NCBI GenBank assembly: GCA_963704755.1
Contig: OY969938.1
Coordinates: forward strand, 1,350,001-1,382,000
Length of the DNA: 32,000 bases
From: an uncultured Chloroflexia bacterium
GTDB lineage: Bacteria; Chloroflexota; Anaerolineae; Anaerolineales; Anaerolineaceae
Direction: 5' to 3'
The notes beneath the pieces were generated by a model. The model saw only the letters and a program-made list of their open reading frames with translations, was not told the origin of the DNA and did not search any database. Made by a program: the position numbers and the translations under genes. This document shows, piece by piece, positions 87 through 24,430 of this stretch (position 1 is the stretch's first letter; every line of letters starts with the position of its first letter).

Positions 87-962
87 TCAGTCGGTCACCC
101 GGCGTAACTTTTTCAGCGAAGATAACTCGCTGTCATAGACCTTTTTGACGCCGTCGCCCAGGGCCTGTTCGGTCACGCGGATGTATTTGACCAGGCGTTC
201 GAAGCCGCCCGGTTCGACTGAGGCAGCCTGGTCTGAGCCCCACATGGCCCGGTCGAGGGTAATATGGCGTTCTACCAGGCAGGCGCCTAACCCGACCGCC
301 ACCACACTGGGGATCAGGCCCACTTCGTGGCCTGAATAGCCGATCGGGCAGTCGTATTCGCCCTTGAGCGTCTGTACCATGCGCAGGTTCAGGTCTTCCG
401 GCGGGCAGGGATAGGCGCTGGTGGTGTGGCAAATCACCAGCCGGCCAGTGTCCAGGTATTGGATCGCCTGCTTGATCTGGTCCTGGGTGGACATGCCGGT
501 GGAACAAATGACCGTCCGGCCGGTGCTGGTGAGCTTTTTCAGCAGGTCGTGATCGGTCAAGGCCGCCGAGGGCACCTTATAGGCTACCGGGTCGAAAGCC
601 TCCATGAAATCCACCGAGGGTTCATCCCAGACCGAAGCGAACCAGGTGACGCCGATCTTTTTGGCGTAAGCATCGATCTCGCGGTACTGCTTCTCATCAA
701 ATTCCACTTTATAGCGGTAATCCAGATAGGTGATGTATCCCCAGGGGGTTTCACGCATCACGTTGCGCTGGTCAACCGGCGTACACAGCTCCGGCGTGCG
801 TTTCTGGAATTTGACCGCATCGATACCGGTTTGTTTGGCCACGTCCATCAACCTTTTGGCAATTTCCACATCGCCGTTGTGGTTGATTCCGATCTCCGCC
901 ACAATGTAGGTCGGTTGACCTTCGCCGATCAACCGGTCCCCAATTTTTACTGTCTTCGCCAT
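87..962 (-). CDS. neuB: NeuB-family nonulosonic-acid (sialic-acid-type) synthase, short form without the C-terminal SAF/antifreeze-like domain
   Basis: 291 aa. The N-terminus IGEGQPTYIVAEIGINHNGDVEIAKRLMDVAKQTGIDAVKFQKR and the later YSGHE and ERHITLDR motifs are typical of the NeuB/PseI/LegI TIM barrel. The protein ends about 55 aa earlier than the paralog at 15140..16216. GGAG RBS 6 nt upstream of the ATG. Confidence 0.85.
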   Translation of the reverse strand: MAKTVKIGDRLIGEGQPTYIVAEIGINHNGDVEIAKRLMDVAKQTGIDAVKFQKRTPELCTPVDQRNVMRETPWGYITYLDYRYKVEFDEKQYREIDAYAKKIGVTWFASVWDEPSVDFMEAFDPVAYKVPSAALTDHDLLKKLTSTGRTVICSTGMSTQDQIKQAIQYLDTGRLVICHTTSAYPCPPEDLNLRMVQTLKGEYDCPIGYSGHEVGLIPSVVAVGLGACLVERHITLDRAMWGSDQAASVEPGGFERLVKYIRVTEQALGDGVKKVYDSELSSLKKLRRVTD

Positions 963-1023
963 AGGTTCTCCATTTGGTTTATGCAGGAATAATGTAACCG
1001 TTCAGCCTTACCAACTAAAACCC

Positions 1024-1074
1024 CGAATTTGAGATGTTTACACGGACGAAGCCCGCACAAACATCTCAAATTCG
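1024..1074. repeat. intergenic palindromic element with a perfect 16-bp stem (cgaatttgagatgttt / aaacatctcaaattcg) and a 19-nt loop; may act as a terminator or RNA-stability hairpin
   Basis: Read directly from the sequence. On the minus (transcribed) strand the stem is followed by GGGGTTTTAG. It shares the GAATTTGAG stem base with the element at 7362..7399. Confidence 0.6.
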
Positions 1075-1131
1075 AAAATTCTTTACCAGCCTGTCCGGTT
1101 ACGAAATAATTTGCTCAAAAGCATACTTCCT

Positions 1132-2361
1132 CTATCCAGCCTGGCGCTCTACCAGCAAGTCGCACAGTTCGCGCACCGCACCGTGGCCGCCCGGCCGCGA
1201 AAGGACCACGTCGGCCGCCCGGCGAGCTTCCGGCTGGGCATCCGCTACCACTACCCCACACCCGACCAGCGGGAAGCAGGGCACATCGTTGATATCGTTC
1301 CCCAGGTAAATCGCTTCCTGCGGATCGATTTGTTGTTCCCTTAAGTAATTCTTTAACACTCCGGTCTTGTCGGCCACACCCTGGATATAGGGCAAGCCGA
1401 TTTTCTCACAGCGGGCCTGGACGACTTTGTTCGTCTCGGCCGAGATCACCACCACTTTGACGCCGGTATGCATCAGCCTGGCCAGCCCGAGGCTATCGGA
1501 GCGATATACAGCCACGTATTCGTGCGCCTGGTCATCCACCCAGGCGCGATTATCGGTCATGACCCCGTCGAAATCGAAGACCACCAGCTTGACCTGCTCT
1601 GGCAGCGGGCGGCGCGCTTGCCCGGGCGTGACCATTTCCAGACCCGATTCGCGCACCAACCGCTCGGCATTGATCCAATCACCCGGGTTGTCGATATCCA
1701 CCGTGTAGCGCGGGTCCACCATCACCGGAAAAATTACCCTGCCGCTCATCGAACCCTGCTCCAGGATGGTGGTGGAGCGGATGGCATCGATATGGCCGGT
1801 CTGCCAGTAAACCGGTGGCAGGACCTGGCGCGGGGCGTTGTAAGGCTCGGCAATGCCGGCTACGTCGATCAGGTTCTTCATGTAACCGGTCTGGGGATCC
1901 ACTCGCCACATTTTGTGCGGGTTTTGCCCGGATGGCACGATCCCGCGGACCGAATCGACCTCCGGGTGATCGATCAGGGTTTGCACGGCCTGATCGACCA
2001 GGCCTACCGGCCGGACCGGGGAAGTCGGGCGCAACTGCACCACGATATCAGGCCCGTAGGCCTCGTTAGAGGTCAACCAGGCCAGGGCATGCTGAAAGAC
2101 CGGCAAATCCAGCGTGTTGTCTTGTGCCAGCGCCGGCGGGCGCAAAAAAGGCACATCCGCCCCAAAGTTCCGGCCAACCTCCGCTATCTCGGGGTCGTCG
2201 GTCGAAAGGATTACCCGTGTGACCAACCTGGACTGCAAGCCGGCTGCAATGCTATACGCAATCAACGGATAACCGGAGAAATCGCGGATGTTCTTGTGCG
2301 GGATACCTTTTGACCCACCACGGGCCGGGATGATGGCCAGGACTTCGAGGCGTTTTACCAT
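1132..2361 (-). CDS. neuA: fusion protein: N-terminal acylneuraminate (CMP-nonulosonate) cytidylyltransferase and C-terminal KdsC-type (C0) HAD sugar-phosphate phosphatase
   Basis: N-terminal LAIIPARGGSKGIPHKNI motif of CMP-NeuAc synthetases. The C-terminal half has HAD motif I (VVFDFDGVMTDN), motif II (VVISAETN) and motif IV (YLGNDINDVP), as in KdsC and KDN-9-P phosphatases. The ORF track starts at a TTG at 2370. I prefer the ATG at 2361, which has a GGAGG 9 nt upstream. It overlaps the end of the SDR gene. Confidence 0.85.
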   Translation of the reverse strand: MVKRLEVLAIIPARGGSKGIPHKNIRDFSGYPLIAYSIAAGLQSRLVTRVILSTDDPEIAEVGRNFGADVPFLRPPALAQDNTLDLPVFQHALAWLTSNEAYGPDIVVQLRPTSPVRPVGLVDQAVQTLIDHPEVDSVRGIVPSGQNPHKMWRVDPQTGYMKNLIDVAGIAEPYNAPRQVLPPVYWQTGHIDAIRSTTILEQGSMSGRVIFPVMVDPRYTVDIDNPGDWINAERLVRESGLEMVTPGQARRPLPEQVKLVVFDFDGVMTDNRAWVDDQAHEYVAVYRSDSLGLARLMHTGVKVVVISAETNKVVQARCEKIGLPYIQGVADKTGVLKNYLREQQIDPQEAIYLGNDINDVPCFPLVGCGVVVADAQPEARRAADVVLSRPGGHGAVRELCDLLVERQAG

Positions 2362-22941: not shown

Positions 22942-23901
22942 TCAGGCGTGGGCGCGGGCCACACGGTACCAATCAATGGTCTTGCGCAGGCCCTCTTCGA
23001 AGTCAGTTTGGGCACGGAAGCCGAACAACGCTTCCGCCCGAGAGGTATCCAATGCCCGACGCGGCTGCCCGTTGGGCTTGGACGTGTCGAACACCATCTC
23101 CCCTTCAAAACCGGTCAGCCGCTGGATCAACCCGGCCAGTCTCTTGATGCTGATCTCTTTGCCCGAGCCCAGGTTGACCGGTTGAGAGTCGTTATACCGT
23201 TCAGCCGCCAGGACAATGCCTTCGGCCGCATCCTCGACGTACAGGAATTCGCGTGTGGGCGAGCCATCTCCCCATACCTCGATCGAGCTGGCCTGGTCCT
23301 CTTGGGCCTCCAGGCATTTCCGGATCAGGGCCGGGATGACGTGCGACAATTCCGGATTGAAGTTATCCCCGGGACCGTACAAATTGACCGGCAGCAAGAA
23401 AATGGAATTATAGCCATACTGCTGGCGATAAGCCTGTGACTGCACCAGGAGCATTTTCTTGGCCAGCCCGTACGGGGCATTGGTCTCTTCGGGGTAGCCA
23501 TTCCACAACTCTTCTTCGCGAAACGGTACCGGAGTGAACTTGGGATAGGCGCACACCGTGCCGATGGCAACGAATTTTTCAATTTTGCGCTTCCAGGCCT
23601 GGTGCATCAATTGAACGCCCATCATCAGGTTATCGTAGAAAAATTCGGCCGGATGGGTGCGATTTGCCCCAATGCCTCCAACATGAGCCGCCAGGTGGAT
23701 AATTACATCTGGCTGCGAATCTTCCAGCATCCTATCCACATCTTCAGGCAAGATCAGGTTGTATTCCTCAAATTTCGGGATAAAGATTTCCTTAGCGCCG
23801 CGTTCCTTCAGCTTGGCAGTAACAAAAGAGCCCAGGAAGCCTGCCCCCCCGGTAACACAAACCTTTCGGTTTTTCCAGAAATCAATTGTGTCCATCATCA
23901 T
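22942..23901 (-). CDS. fcl: GDP-L-fucose synthase (GDP-4-keto-6-deoxymannose 3,5-epimerase/4-reductase)
   Basis: Collinear with E. coli Fcl/WcaG motifs: [83 protein letters not shown] place the start at the ATG at 23901, which overlaps the regulator's TGA. Confidence 0.88.
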
Positions 23902-24377
23902 TCCTGTTCCTCCGGTGCGATGAAAACTTTTAACCCATGGATAACCACCAGCGGCGCCGCATCGTTTTCGACGATCGCTACGCCGTTTTCCAGACAAGTC
24001 AGCTTGCAGACCTCCGCCACATCCCCACCGTCGCCATCCAGGCGAATTTCCTCGATGCCCGATTTTTCCAGGTCATCAAGGACCGTCTGCATCCGCGTGC
24101 GAATCAACCGATACAGGTGAAACTGGTTTTGGATATACTCAACCGTTAGATGAGCGCGCAGGGTCAGCCCATCGGGAGTGATAATATAACGCAATTTGCG
24201 GCGTTCGACACGCCGCACTTTGATATACCCTTTGGCAATCAACCGCTTCAGATGCCAGTTTACCGTGCCAACCGCAACCCCAAGTTGGGCCGCCAGCGAT
24301 GCCTGGGTAGCATCCGGGTTCTGTTCAATTCTTTCCAGGATAATTAGATCGCGATTATAGTCAGGTGTATCGCTCAT
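23898..24377 (-). CDS. winged-helix (MarR-like, EPS-associated type) transcriptional regulator with an uncharacterised C-terminal extension of about 60 aa
   Basis: 159 aa. [59 protein letters not shown] is a wHTH resembling the MarR-type regulators found in exopolysaccharide loci. First gene after the promoter. Confidence 0.75.
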
Positions 24378-24385
24378 AAGGATCC

Positions 24386-24406
24386 ATAATTCAATTGTTG
24401 AATTAT
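24386..24406. promoter_or_regulatory. candidate operator: perfect 9-bp inverted repeat ATAATTCAA-n3-TTGAATTAT
   Basis: Read directly from the sequence. It overlaps the -10 hexamer and the predicted transcription start, 9-29 nt upstream of the regulator's ATG. Confidence 0.55.
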
Positions 24407-24430
24407 AAACTTGCCCGGCGAATCGGTCAA
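24402..24430 (-). promoter_or_regulatory. sigma70-like promoter: TTGACC, 17 nt spacer, TATAAT
   Basis: Minus-strand reading is cccTTGACCgattcgccgggcaagttTATAATtcaacaattg. The -35 is at 24430-24425, the spacer is exactly 17 nt and the -10 is at 24407-24402. It lies just downstream of the terminator at 24567..24604 and upstream of the first gene of the long cluster. Confidence 0.6.

Follow-up and report, generated by a model that had tools for sequence, protein, structure and literature searches.

A run of co-directional genes that joins an ABC transporter and ulosonic-acid enzymes to a large polytopic protein and two lipoproteins with Pro/Thr-rich linkers raises the question of whether it encodes a dedicated system for glycosylating its own lipoproteins or a surface glycan to which these lipoproteins were added. 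We analyzed the locus within a 32,000-nucleotide stretch of DNA (the window), and found that it is a real conserved cluster, which, judging from its sequence, directs the synthesis of a surface sugar polymer with sialic-acid-like sugars and its export by an ABC transporter. The window rather probably carries the greater part of a cell-surface glycan locus, ~30-35 kb long, that belongs to an Anaerolinea-like, monoderm-type member of the Chloroflexota.

Gene content and the predicted pathway

A preliminary description of this DNA had proposed about two dozen co-directional genes read from one promoter, and all 23 called genes in 87..24377 indeed lie on the minus strand, running from 24377 to 87. 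The ATGA start/stop overlaps at 23898-23901, 22070-22073 and 17169-17172 are exact, and 13 of the 22 junctions measure 21 nt or less, but the tiny gaps claimed do not extend to the other nine (43-379 nt), the widest of which adjoin two inserted small genes, 23S_rRNA_IVP and PDDEXK_3. The locus does not stop at position 87, taken earlier for its end, but runs on past the left edge of the window, where a third HP-motif GT-B gene (HP3) follows. In the direction of transcription, the features are:

24402..24430, minus strand: sigma-70-like promoter TTGACC-17-TATAAT (11 of 12 consensus positions, best site in 26 kb; consensus match only)
23898..24377, minus strand: MarR-family regulator, EPS-associated type (HTH_24 and MarR domains; TIGR04176 MarR_EPS 67.7 bits, below the cut-off of 88)
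22942..23901, minus strand: GDP-L-fucose-synthase-like SDR, fcl-like (Epimerase E 4e-56; NF047922 310 bits, below the cut-off of 500)
22070..22921, minus strand: Wzm, ABC-2 permease (ABC2_membrane E 2.7e-24)
20820..22073, minus strand: Wzt ATPase with a C-terminal Wzt_C-like domain (ABC_tran)
19181..20818, minus strand: HP545, KpsC/KpsS-like (Capsule_synth) HP-motif GT-B (PF05159 18.1 bits, below the cut-off of 20; BFO_1060 E 7e-7)
18297..19160, minus strand: SAM methyltransferase (Methyltransf_11 E 2e-17)
17169..18185, minus strand: PseB, inverting UDP-GlcNAc 4,6-dehydratase (TIGR03589 505.6 bits, above the cut-off of 407.75)
16237..17172, minus strand: RmlD-like 4-keto reductase (RmlD_sub_bind E 6e-58; TIGR01214 193 bits, below cut-off)
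15140..16216, minus strand: NeuB-family ulosonic-acid synthase with SAF (NeuB E 1e-70; below the NeuB and PseI equivalog cut-offs)
14674..15096, minus strand: 23S rRNA-intervening-sequence-protein gene, inserted passenger (PF05635 E 3e-32)
13429..14541, minus strand: GT4 glycosyltransferase (Glycos_transf_1 and Glyco_trans_4)
12481..13237, minus strand: SpsF/KdsB-like cytidylyltransferase, split (CTP_transf_3 E 1e-30)
10409..12461, minus strand: polytopic family-X protein, ~686 aa when repaired, split by a frameshift
9488..10399, minus strand: conserved 303-aa protein, earlier described as GT-A-like
8716..9108, minus strand: PDDEXK_3 (GxxExxY-type) small gene, inserted passenger (PF13366 E 3e-42; repeats on its flanks)
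7419..8384, minus strand: GT2 glycosyltransferase (Glycos_transf_2 E 1e-13)
5897..7330, minus strand: HP477, HP-motif GT-B, weakly BFO_1060-like (NF046086 E 6e-8)
4851..5837, minus strand: Gfo/Idh/MocA oxidoreductase, left flank of the variable slot (Pfam/NCBIfam)
4077..4847, minus strand: lipoprotein 1 (lipobox IAGC, 57-aa Pro/Thr-rich linker, Ig-like beta-sandwich, Cys-rich subdomain)
3201..3971, minus strand: lipoprotein 2, paralogue of lipoprotein 1, with an in-frame TAA at ~3714
2355..3179, minus strand: SDR oxidoreductase (PRK09186-like), right flank of the variable slot
1132..2370, minus strand: CMP-ulosonate synthetase (NeuA/PseF-like) fused to a KdsC/Kdn-9-P-phosphatase-like HAD (CTP_transf_3 and Hydrolase_3; PseF, KdsC and KDN-9-P phosphatase matches all below cut-off)
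87..962, minus strand: NeuB-family synthase without SAF (NeuB E 2.5e-73)

A terminator with a 16-bp stem (24604..24567) precedes the promoter. At ~24386-24406, the sequence ATAATTCAA-caa-TTGAATTAT forms a perfect inverted repeat with 9-bp arms that shares bases with the -10 box and could serve as the operator for MarR; a MarR-type repressor may act on this promoter. Pfam and NCBIfam confirmed the MarR, fcl-like, Wzm, Wzt and methyltransferase genes named previously, and both HP-motif GT-B proteins are present, with the motifs IRIHPGE and IRLHPNH. The extra C-terminal domain ascribed to Wzt does match Wzt_C, although at 26.2 bits, under the cut-off of 30.4; the nearest NCBIfam models of this protein are TagH and galactan-export Wzt. 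Assignments below curated cut-offs (Wzt_C, MarR_EPS, Fcl and, for HP545, Capsule_synth) weaken our preferred explanation.

Two complete-looking nonulosonic-acid modules had been described, but neither is complete; no aminotransferase, acetyltransferase or UDP-sugar hydrolase for them was found, and there is no gmd gene in the window. From the genes identified, cytoplasmic enzymes would supply a PseB/RmlD-derived 6-deoxy-hexosamine, a GDP-6-deoxyhexose and at least two CMP-activated ulosonic acids, one via the NeuB synthase with SAF and the other through a phosphorylated intermediate handled by the second NeuB synthase, the HAD phosphatase and the NeuA domain. Assembly of the glycan would take place at the inner membrane face, where a lipid carrier may receive sugars from the GT4, the GT2, the 303-aa protein and three KpsC/KpsS-like GT-Bs with an HP motif. 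The 303-aa protein has no Pfam or NCBIfam match that would confirm its GT-A-like label, but almost every related locus has it in a syntenic position. Homology of HP545 to the Capsule_synth family is indicated by hhalign, which aligns it to the HP3 family (probability 98%, E 1.8e-13), and HP3 scores above the PF05159 cut-off; in HP477, H305 and P306 are invariant, and its kinship to HP3 is remote. The HP motif is common to CMP-Kdo and CMP-sialic acid transferases (PMC10148158), and HP545 would act as a CMP-ulosonic-acid transferase. The methyltransferase is a candidate chain-terminating enzyme that probably caps the chain, and the finished lipid-linked glycan would leave through Wzm/Wzt, its terminus probably being read, by analogy, by the Wzt C-terminal domain. 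Ulosonic-acid chemistry, Wzm/Wzt and a candidate methyl cap thus all bear out the earlier view of an ABC-transporter-dependent glycan locus with nonulosonic acids, and the relatives, Anaerolinea thermophila and A. thermolimosa, agree with the monoderm-type envelope it proposed.

Disrupted and inserted genes

Three genes are disrupted in this assembly, which also weakens our explanation. The polytopic gene is frameshifted near 11690, where five T have become four, and appears in the source annotation as a 378-aa fragment only; an extra G near 12690, a 1-nt insertion, splits the frame of the SpsF-like gene, whose orthologues are unbroken (252-261 aa); and lipoprotein 2 carries its nonsense codon. 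Together with the two selfish small genes, inserted with flanking repeats and absent from orthologous loci (L002, L008 and L017 for 23S_rRNA_IVP), these lesions could mean that the locus is non-functional here, a reading we consider quite improbable. Each frameshift is a change of one base within a short homopolymer, and a methyltransferase gene beyond the locus (~30900) is broken in the same way; three such indels in 32 kb are typical of long-read consensus error. The other genes are all intact, with orthologues 50-87% identical, and a near-identical contig (L001, 99.9%) has indels of its own that differ from those of this assembly; the TAA of lipoprotein 2 is found in that contig too. The two 1-nt frameshifts are probably assembly errors.

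The lipoproteins and their slot

The two paralogous lipoproteins with long Pro/Thr linkers were recovered as described: both have a lipobox, they are 42% identical, and Pro, Thr, Ser and Ala make up 73-74% of their linkers. Every member of the family has a lipobox and a Pro/Thr/Ser/Ala-rich linker of ~55-75 aa, followed by a non-enzymatic folded part (Ig-like and Cys-rich domains). Gene order is kept, at 35-87% protein identity, in L002, L004, L008-L012, L014 and L017, among them the locus of cultured A. thermolimosa IMO-1, and the lipoprotein genes keep their place among the glycan genes, a synteny counted in eight related loci and in nine Anaerolinea-type loci. Retention of two to three tandem paralogues (39-59% identity) across nine loci speaks for a genuine link in function with the glycan; our explanation leaves this link loosely defined despite such retention.

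The synteny holds in the closest clade but is missing in most relatives, and with it the suggestion that the locus encodes both machinery and substrates stands only in part. Another 34 related loci were examined in which no lipoprotein genes occur; 33 of these retain the downstream NeuB cassette. Among the 33 metagenome loci that keep NeuB2-HP3, all without the lipoproteins, Gfo and SDR genes occur in 27 and are directly adjacent in 20, and most keep a fuller cassette (Gfo-SDR-NeuA/HAD-NeuB2-HP3-CTP-2Hacid-SDR-MptE). L017 is syntenic from HP545 to NeuA/HAD and yet has no lipoprotein genes. Elsewhere, the Gfo/SDR junction carries GT-C genes, sulfation genes, an acetyltransferase or a GtrB-like GT2; the lipoprotein position is a variable slot. 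Because these 33 loci and L017 do without them, the lipoproteins do not belong to the core of the system.

The polytopic protein and the acceptor of the glycan

Family X is a large family that has no Pfam or NCBIfam model. The predicted structure of its member here (pLDDT 89.9) suggests a GT-C-like fold: GT-C enzymes account for seven of the nine best matches that Foldseek returned from the PDB (ArnT and STT3A twice each, STT3B, PglB and AglB), with AftD as an additional match at rank 9, all marginal (E 1.4e-3 or weaker, TM-score ~0.3). A DDW motif is conserved after TM1, and the C-terminal domain is extracytoplasmic, combining alpha/beta and TPR-like parts. The O-oligosaccharyltransferases PglL and WsfB also come with TPR segments (PMC2943079), but WsaB/PglL-type enzymes are defined by a Wzy_C domain (PMC2943079), which family X lacks; the GT-C-like part of the earlier proposal survives as a prediction, and the WsaB/PglL-type assignment was rejected. 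Outside the membrane, such a GT-C-fold enzyme may perform a transfer from a lipid-linked donor, either the last one onto the acceptor or a decoration.

Could this enzyme transfer the capped nonulosonic-acid glycan en bloc to linker Ser/Thr of the lipoproteins, as a dedicated O-glycosylation system? The tandem paralogues in the same position in nine loci, their linkers and non-enzymatic domains, the predicted fold with its TPR-like segment, and the bona fide PMT_2 GT-C genes that A. thermolimosa carries in the neighbouring slot, between the GT4 and SpsF-like genes, are all consistent with this idea. So are precedents for substrate genes in or beside glycosylation loci, such as sgsE, which adjoins the slg cluster, flaA/flaB in Campylobacter, and pilA-pilO. 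We nevertheless think it unlikely, since 34 related loci keep locus genes without the lipoproteins, whose slot holds unrelated cargo elsewhere, and family X is not always found together with the lipoproteins: the latter occur in L008, L011 and L012, which miss family X at its slot, whereas L017 and L022 have family X and no lipoproteins. Large polytopic genes turn up frequently whether or not a locus has lipoproteins, distant lipoprotein kin sit in non-glycan neighbourhoods, lipoprotein 2 has a stop codon here, Pro/Thr linkers are non-specific evidence of glycosylation, and no Wzy_C domain or ligase was found in any scanned locus product.

Somewhat less doubtful, though still tentative, is a polymer resembling Gram-negative group 2 capsules, in which a phospholipid of the membrane directly carries the ulosonic-acid oligomer that KpsS/KpsC-like enzymes build; extended by further transferases and flipped out by Wzm/Wzt, it would in a monoderm stay lipid-anchored or become wall-linked like teichulosonic acid, with GT-C enzymes merely decorating it and the lipoproteins not covalently tied to it. 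In Kdo-linker capsules, synthesis takes place on phosphatidylglycerol and an ABC transporter carries out the export (PMC11041684, PMC10148158). Two of the three HP-motif GT-B genes fall in or are homologous to Capsule_synth, the KpsC/KpsS family, and the context of the candidate nucleophile Asp, FDTS in HP3 and GDSL in HP545, resembles VDQT of KpsC (alignment; PMC10148158), but HP545 stays under the Pfam cut-off and profile searches against solved structures of KpsC gave no significant match. No WecA/WbaP-type initiating transferase was found in any scanned locus product, and KpsC/KpsS-like transferases without one fit a lipid-anchored polymer equally; the initiating enzyme could, however, lie elsewhere in the genome. 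The core cassette is widespread without lipoproteins, yet the window showed no LCP ligase, and this reading gives no account of non-enzymatic lipoprotein paralogues retained in one clade.

An exported surface glycan is our preferred reading. Lipoprotein glycosylation by the locus is plausible at most, and it cannot be what the locus is chiefly for; as a lineage-specific add-on, the lipoproteins are possible targets, which does not establish a dedicated lipoprotein-glycosylation system. Because the conserved cassette occurs without lipoprotein genes in most related loci, the glycan most probably goes chiefly to a general component of the envelope, a lipid anchor or the wall, and in the Anaerolinea clade the two tandem lipoproteins would be a lineage-specific accessory, possibly an extra glycan acceptor or a glycan-tethering surface protein.

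Organization of the locus

All 23 genes between positions 87 and 24377 lie on the minus strand, as the preliminary description had it, and the three ATGA stop/start overlaps that it named are exact, one of them joining the ABC-2 permease and ATPase genes. Its claim of tiny gaps holds for 13 of the 22 junctions, which measure 21 nt or less or overlap, but not for the remaining nine, which span 43-379 nt; the widest gaps surround two small passenger genes. "Operon-like" is a fair label for this gene arrangement. The features referred to below are as follows.

24604..24567, minus strand, terminator-like hairpin
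24430..24402, minus strand, promoter-like site
19181..20818, minus strand, HP545, HP-motif GT-B protein
14674-15096, minus strand, 23S_rRNA_IVP passenger gene
10409..12461, minus strand, polytopic protein (family X, about 686 aa when repaired)
8716-9108, minus strand, PDDEXK_3 passenger gene
5897..7330, minus strand, HP477, HP-motif GT-B protein
4851..5837, minus strand, Gfo/Idh/MocA gene
4077..4847, minus strand, lipoprotein Lpp1
3201..3971, minus strand, lipoprotein Lpp2
2355..3179, minus strand, SDR gene
87..962, minus strand, NeuB2, a NeuB protein lacking the SAF domain

The start of the locus is clearly marked by a terminator-like hairpin, a promoter-like site and a palindrome, which are consensus matches rather than functional proof. 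The hairpin, with its 16-bp stem, ends the upstream gene and is the strongest of the region; the promoter-like TTGACC-17-TATAAT agrees with 11 of 12 consensus positions and is the best such site in 26 kb; and a 9-bp perfect inverted repeat, a candidate MarR operator, overlaps the -10 box directly upstream of the MarR gene. Within the locus, no convincing terminator was found and weak promoter-like sites are present, with candidate positions near 14610 and 9107. Rfam and tRNA scans of the whole window were empty. The upstream neighbour (24638-25120) codes for a protein of 160 aa that contains a poly-Ser tract and matches no family.

The 23S rRNA-intervening-sequence-protein gene, which encodes a four-helix bundle, is located between the NeuB+SAF and GT4 genes and is missing in three related loci (L002, L008 and L017). 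The PDDEXK_3 gene (GxxExxY-type) has 25-40-nt inverted and direct repeats on either side, within 8412-9496 (CCGCAGAGACGC... motifs), and is missing from the closest orthologous loci, with a homologue elsewhere in L010, L014 and L022; this small gene behaves like a mobile passenger.

Two genes of the locus are split by frameshifts, the polytopic gene by a T5-to-T4 change near 11690 and the SpsF-like gene by an extra G near 12690, and orthologues of both are intact elsewhere; of the polytopic gene, the source genome annotation records no more than a 378-aa fragment. Outside the locus, a SAM-methyltransferase gene (30550-31474) is likewise interrupted, here by one surplus T in a homopolymer near 30900. 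Because this third homopolymer indel lies outside the locus, at about one indel per 10 kb, the lesions suggest long-read consensus errors, and we judge locus-specific decay to be less likely. The in-frame TAA of Lpp2, near 3714, is also present in L001, a 99.9%-identical contig of run ERR11571143, which carries indels of its own and is perhaps from the same sample as the window, so that the stop may be either genuine or an error.

Toward the right end of the window, between 26300 and 32000, the G+C content drops from about 57% to 34-45%. This segment holds a second surface-glycan set: two GT4 genes, the split SAM methyltransferase, and genes for a small lipoprotein, a secreted protein of 464 aa and a protein with 8 TM segments. 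It has the look of either a foreign island or a chimeric join.

Sugar synthesis, export and transfer

The gene list of the preliminary description was borne out by Pfam and NCBIfam, with a strength of support that differs from gene to gene. PseB is the sole product above a curated equivalog cut-off (TIGR03589, 505.6 bits versus 407.75), and its gene is directly followed by that of an RmlD-like reductase; below their cut-offs are MarR_EPS, Fcl, Wzt_C, Capsule_synth (the 545-aa protein) and all of the NeuB, PseI, PseF, KdsB and KdsC equivalogs. The NeuB+SAF protein scored 250.8 against PseI (cut-off 340) and 271.6 against NeuB (cut-off 400), and the cytidylyltransferases scored under the PseF and KdsB cut-offs. 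The two nonulosonic-acid modules had been described as complete-looking; by Pse or Leg standards they are incomplete, as no aminotransferase, N-acetyltransferase (GNAT or hexapeptide), UDP-sugar hydrolase (GT28-like) or 2-epimerase was detected in any locus product and PseC, PseH and PseG were unmatched. The second module consists of a NeuB without SAF and a NeuA fused to a HAD domain resembling KdsC or Kdn-9-P phosphatase, a combination that points to a phosphorylated-intermediate route.

The ABC exporter pair is matched by ABC2_membrane (E 2.7e-24) and ABC_tran (E 9e-21). The Wzt_C domain of the ATPase scored 26.2 bits versus a cut-off of 30.4, and a methyltransferase gene lies two genes downstream. 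Neither a WecA/WbaP-type initiating transferase domain nor a Wzy_C domain was found in any product of 87-24377; an initiating enzyme may be encoded elsewhere in the genome.

Three HP-motif GT-B proteins are associated with the locus, the third of which, HP3, is encoded immediately beyond the window's left boundary. The HP3 family matched PF05159 (Capsule_synth, GT107, the family of the beta-Kdo transferases KpsC/KpsS, which use CMP-Kdo and a phosphatidylglycerol acceptor) above the cut-off, at 28.9 bits, HP545 scored 18.1 bits versus a cut-off of 20, and HP477 gave no match to this family; the homology of HP545 and HP3 is clear from hhalign (probability 98%). The HP motif, whose histidine in KpsC/KpsS enzymes protonates the CMP leaving group, shows no variation in the alignments of HP3 and HP477, and HP545 contains it too. 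Candidate nucleophile Asp motifs are visible in these proteins, with an alignment to KpsC that is without significance, and a PDB search with all three (phmmer and profiles) returned KpsC as the best match at a non-significant E of 0.11-2. Both in-window proteins also matched the BFO_1060 glycosyltransferase model weakly, at 29-32 bits versus a cut-off of 200. The HP motif is common to KpsC-type enzymes and CMP-sialic-acid transferases (PMC10148158), and on this basis a CMP-ulosonic-acid donor for the HP proteins is a reasonable inference.

The polytopic protein, whether searched as its two halves or as the repaired 686-aa sequence, has no Pfam or NCBIfam match, and an exact-protein look-up of its N-terminal ORF found nothing. 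It belongs to a large family, here termed family X, which has no model in either database: a word-indexed search found 25 relatives, and with an exhaustive profile search the number rose to 1,890 cluster representatives at E ≤1e-30. The AlphaFold2 model of its orthologue P0004 is confident (pLDDT 89.9). Seven of its nine best Foldseek matches in the PDB are GT-C enzymes (ArnT twice, STT3A twice, STT3B, PglB and AglB), each with a probability of at least 0.99, and AftD, also a GT-C enzyme, follows at rank 9 (probability 0.96), with E-values of 1.4e-3 or weaker and TM-scores of 0.26-0.34 despite the high probabilities. Directly after TM1, conservation reaches at least 90% at residues D38, D39 and W40 (GFYLDDWP), and such a DDW motif is as expected of a catalytic loop in GT-C enzymes; because the N-terminus is basic, the loop should face outward. 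The C-terminal part of ~250 residues is extracytoplasmic, with four invariant cysteines and a TPR/PPR-like segment at the end. A sequence-profile search of family X against the PDB returned only PPR/TPR designs (residues 585-668) and no GT-C enzyme.

The preliminary description had drawn a parallel to the Geobacillus enzyme WsaB. WsaB, WsfB, PglL and PilO are Wzy_C enzymes (PMC2943079), and among 24 family X members Wzy_C was not matched even at E up to 5; with no Pfam or NCBIfam domain match either, we reject a Wzy_C/WsaB identity. One of the 24 members matched PMT_2, at a non-significant E of 0.012, and family X matched none of the described GT-C families searched (PMT_2, PMT, STT3, YfhO and others). 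By hhalign, it is related neither to the PMT_2-like protein of L009 (probability 0.3%) nor to a 549-aa polytopic protein of L012. We conclude that the polytopic protein is probably a transferase of the GT-C type with a lipid-linked donor; it stands outside every named GT-C family.

Lipoproteins and the variable slot

Lpp1 and Lpp2 are 42% identical. Read from the sequence, their lipoboxes are LVIAG-C25 and IVSA-C, respectively, and the alignment shows a conservation of at least 90% for the cysteine. Each protein has a linker of ~57-60 aa, of which 73-74% is Pro, Thr, Ser or Ala, and a folded domain of ~165 aa with ten conserved cysteines. The domain was modelled (pLDDT 74.7) as an Ig-like beta-sandwich with a small Cys-rich beta unit; the fold search gave weak matches to Ig/TIG-like structures, none better than E 0.018, and neither an enzyme nor a lectin fold. 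The family was found in Anaerolineae alone. Distant members of 150-235 aa (26-30% identity) form clusters of two to four in L018 (9305-11640) and L019 (10001-11202), within a conserved, non-glycan neighbourhood of PRK/ATP-cone, GDPD, GH3 and Ser/Thr kinase genes.

The synteny of lipoprotein and glycan genes, which the preliminary description had named as a test of its lipoprotein O-glycosylation model, is upheld within the immediate clade but does not extend beyond it. Gene-for-gene conservation of the locus extends to metagenome contigs L002, L004 and L008, to Anaerolinea metagenome-assembled genomes (L010, L011 and L014), to a Chloroflexia metagenome-assembled genome (L009, identical to L013) and to A. 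thermolimosa IMO-1 (L012, with ATHL_00133 and its tandem neighbours as the lipoproteins), and in all of these one to three lipoprotein genes lie between the Gfo/Idh/MocA and SDR genes, as two or three tandem copies except in L014. In L017, by contrast, the whole gene order and family X are kept, and the Gfo-SDR gap measures 15 nt and holds no lipoprotein gene. A further 33 metagenome loci encode a NeuB2 that is 67-80% identical; the NeuB2-HP3 pair is kept in all of them, and most have the fuller cassette Gfo-SDR-NeuA/HAD-NeuB2-HP3-cytidylyltransferase-2-hydroxyacid dehydrogenase-SDR-MptE-like. Lipoprotein homologues were detectable in none of the 33, and of the 27 that show both Gfo and SDR, 20 have these two genes side by side. 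At other Gfo-SDR junctions, different cargo was found.

Cargo at the Gfo-SDR junction of related loci
1-3 GT-C-like polytopic genes: L027, L030, L053, L076
ATP sulfurylase, with or without sulfotransferase: L084, L076
Hexapeptide acetyltransferase: L092
GtrB-like GT2: L093

From L017, the 33 loci without lipoproteins and this other cargo, it follows that the lipoprotein genes occupy a hypervariable accessory slot, and the variability of the slot suggests a serotype-like diversification of the glycan.

Family X is likewise mobile inside the locus. It lies between SpsF and a 303-aa gene in the window, L002, L004, L017 and L022, whereas in L009, L010 and again L022 it follows the 2-hydroxyacid dehydrogenase gene on the downstream side; L008, L011 and L012 are without it and have the different 549-aa polytopic protein in the downstream slot. 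In A. thermolimosa (L012), two PMT_2 GT-C proteins are encoded beside the SpsF-like gene, and distant family X members also occur in unrelated neighbourhoods. By a crude count across loci, large polytopic ORFs are common both with and without lipoproteins, and this count therefore lends no support to a specific enzyme-substrate pairing.

Left of the window edge, the relatives (L008, 14458-20738; L012, 14401-20109; L021-L097) share a conserved continuation. It encodes a Capsule_synth GT-B, a cytidylyltransferase of 228 aa and a D-2-hydroxyacid dehydrogenase, in some loci also a polytopic protein, and then an SDR and a Maf-type, MptE-like protein; the MptE-like protein hints at a further CMP-sugar transferase.

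Comparison with known systems and the nature of the acceptor

The slg clusters of Geobacillus stearothermophilus and Paenibacillus alvei resemble the locus in their monoderm host, in a glycan built in the cytoplasm and exported by Wzm/Wzt, in a methyltransferase as candidate terminator and in tight packing with stop/start overlaps. They also have a polytopic enzyme proposed for the last step and a candidate acceptor gene in or next to the cluster, sgsE being a substrate gene that adjoins the slg cluster (PMC2943079). However, WsaB and WsfB are Wzy_C proteins, whereas the polytopic protein of the locus is predicted to have an ArnT/PglB-like GT-C fold; the locus also lacks a WsaP/WbaP-type initiating gene, its candidate acceptors are small lipoproteins instead of an S-layer protein, and its chemistry is based on ulosonic acids rather than rhamnan. 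Actinobacterial PMT (GT39) and eukaryotic TMTC proteins are GT-C enzymes, as is predicted for family X, and the TPR domains of TMTC are paralleled by the extracytoplasmic helical-repeat domain of family X. Actinobacterial O-mannosylation provides a further parallel in lipoproteins with Pro/Thr-rich linkers as candidate acceptors, and PMT_2 genes are present in the A. thermolimosa locus, but family X has no significant PMT_2 match and a polyprenol-phosphate-sugar synthase (GtrB or Ppm1 type) is absent from the window.

The Gram-negative Group 2 capsule (KpsMT with KpsC/KpsS) is similar in its ABC-2-type exporter, Capsule_synth-family HP-motif GT-B enzymes and CMP-ulosonic-acid synthesis, and in having no polyprenol-phosphate initiating transferase. 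Unlike this system, the locus has neither KpsD nor KpsE, in keeping with a monoderm envelope; its synthases are of the NeuB type, which points to acids of nine carbons rather than to Kdo; it includes GT-C enzymes and lipoproteins; and its sequence similarity to KpsC is marginal. In the Campylobacter flagellin island (pse/leg/ptm, maf, flaA/flaB), nonulosonic-acid genes are interleaved with tandem paralogous candidate substrates, flaA and flaB being substrate genes in or beside a glycosylation locus; a PRK09186-like SDR and, in relatives of the locus, a downstream MptE-like (Maf-type) gene are further likenesses. Flagellin glycosylation is nevertheless cytoplasmic and needs no ABC exporter, and the locus has no flagellin genes and its MptE-like gene lies outside the window. 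The general O-glycosylation system of Tannerella forsythia, with terminal pseudaminic or legionaminic acid and a BFO_1060-family transferase, is comparable in that both in-window HP proteins match the BFO_1060 model weakly amid nonulosonic-acid synthesis genes, but they score far under the cut-off of that family, and the Tannerella system is of the Wzx type with another architecture.

The best-supported reading of the locus is an ABC-transporter-dependent surface-glycan pathway with ulosonic acids and an extracytoplasmic GT-C step in a monoderm member of the Chloroflexota. As for the acceptor, protein glycosylation is no more likely than a polymer anchored to lipid or linked to the wall, because in most lineages the core is found without lipoproteins and the KpsC/KpsS-like enzymes come without an initiating transferase. 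Glycosylation of the lipoproteins, or tethering of the glycan, is still a real, lineage-specific possibility, since one clade retains tandem non-enzymatic lipoproteins with mucin-like linkers alongside GT-C genes, including PMT_2. We consider it improbable that, in the Anaerolinea clade, family X is a new kind of O-oligosaccharyltransferase that moves the Wzm/Wzt-exported, ulosonic-acid-capped glycan onto the Pro/Thr linkers of the locus lipoproteins; if true, this would mean a sialomucin-like coat on a monoderm bacterium.

Members of the Chloroflexota are abundant filamentous organisms of sludge, sediment and hot-spring communities, and, to our knowledge, almost nothing is known of the glycoconjugates of their envelope; our literature searches on nonulosonic acids or glycosylation in Chloroflexi and Anaerolinea returned nothing relevant and no description of this locus. 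Its parts are of familiar types, but three of its protein families are uncharacterised, namely the large GT-C-like family, the KpsC-like CMP-sugar transferases in a monoderm and the Cys-rich lipoprotein. Besides the cultured A. thermolimosa IMO-1, an A. thermophila metagenome-assembled genome also carries the locus. Together with the widely conserved cassette, the locus predicts a surface polymer with sialic-acid-like sugars in the Chloroflexota. Should the lipoproteins prove to be the acceptors, the polytopic protein would represent a new type of oligosaccharyltransferase; if they are not, lipid-anchored glycan synthesis of the KpsC/KpsS type would extend to monoderms.
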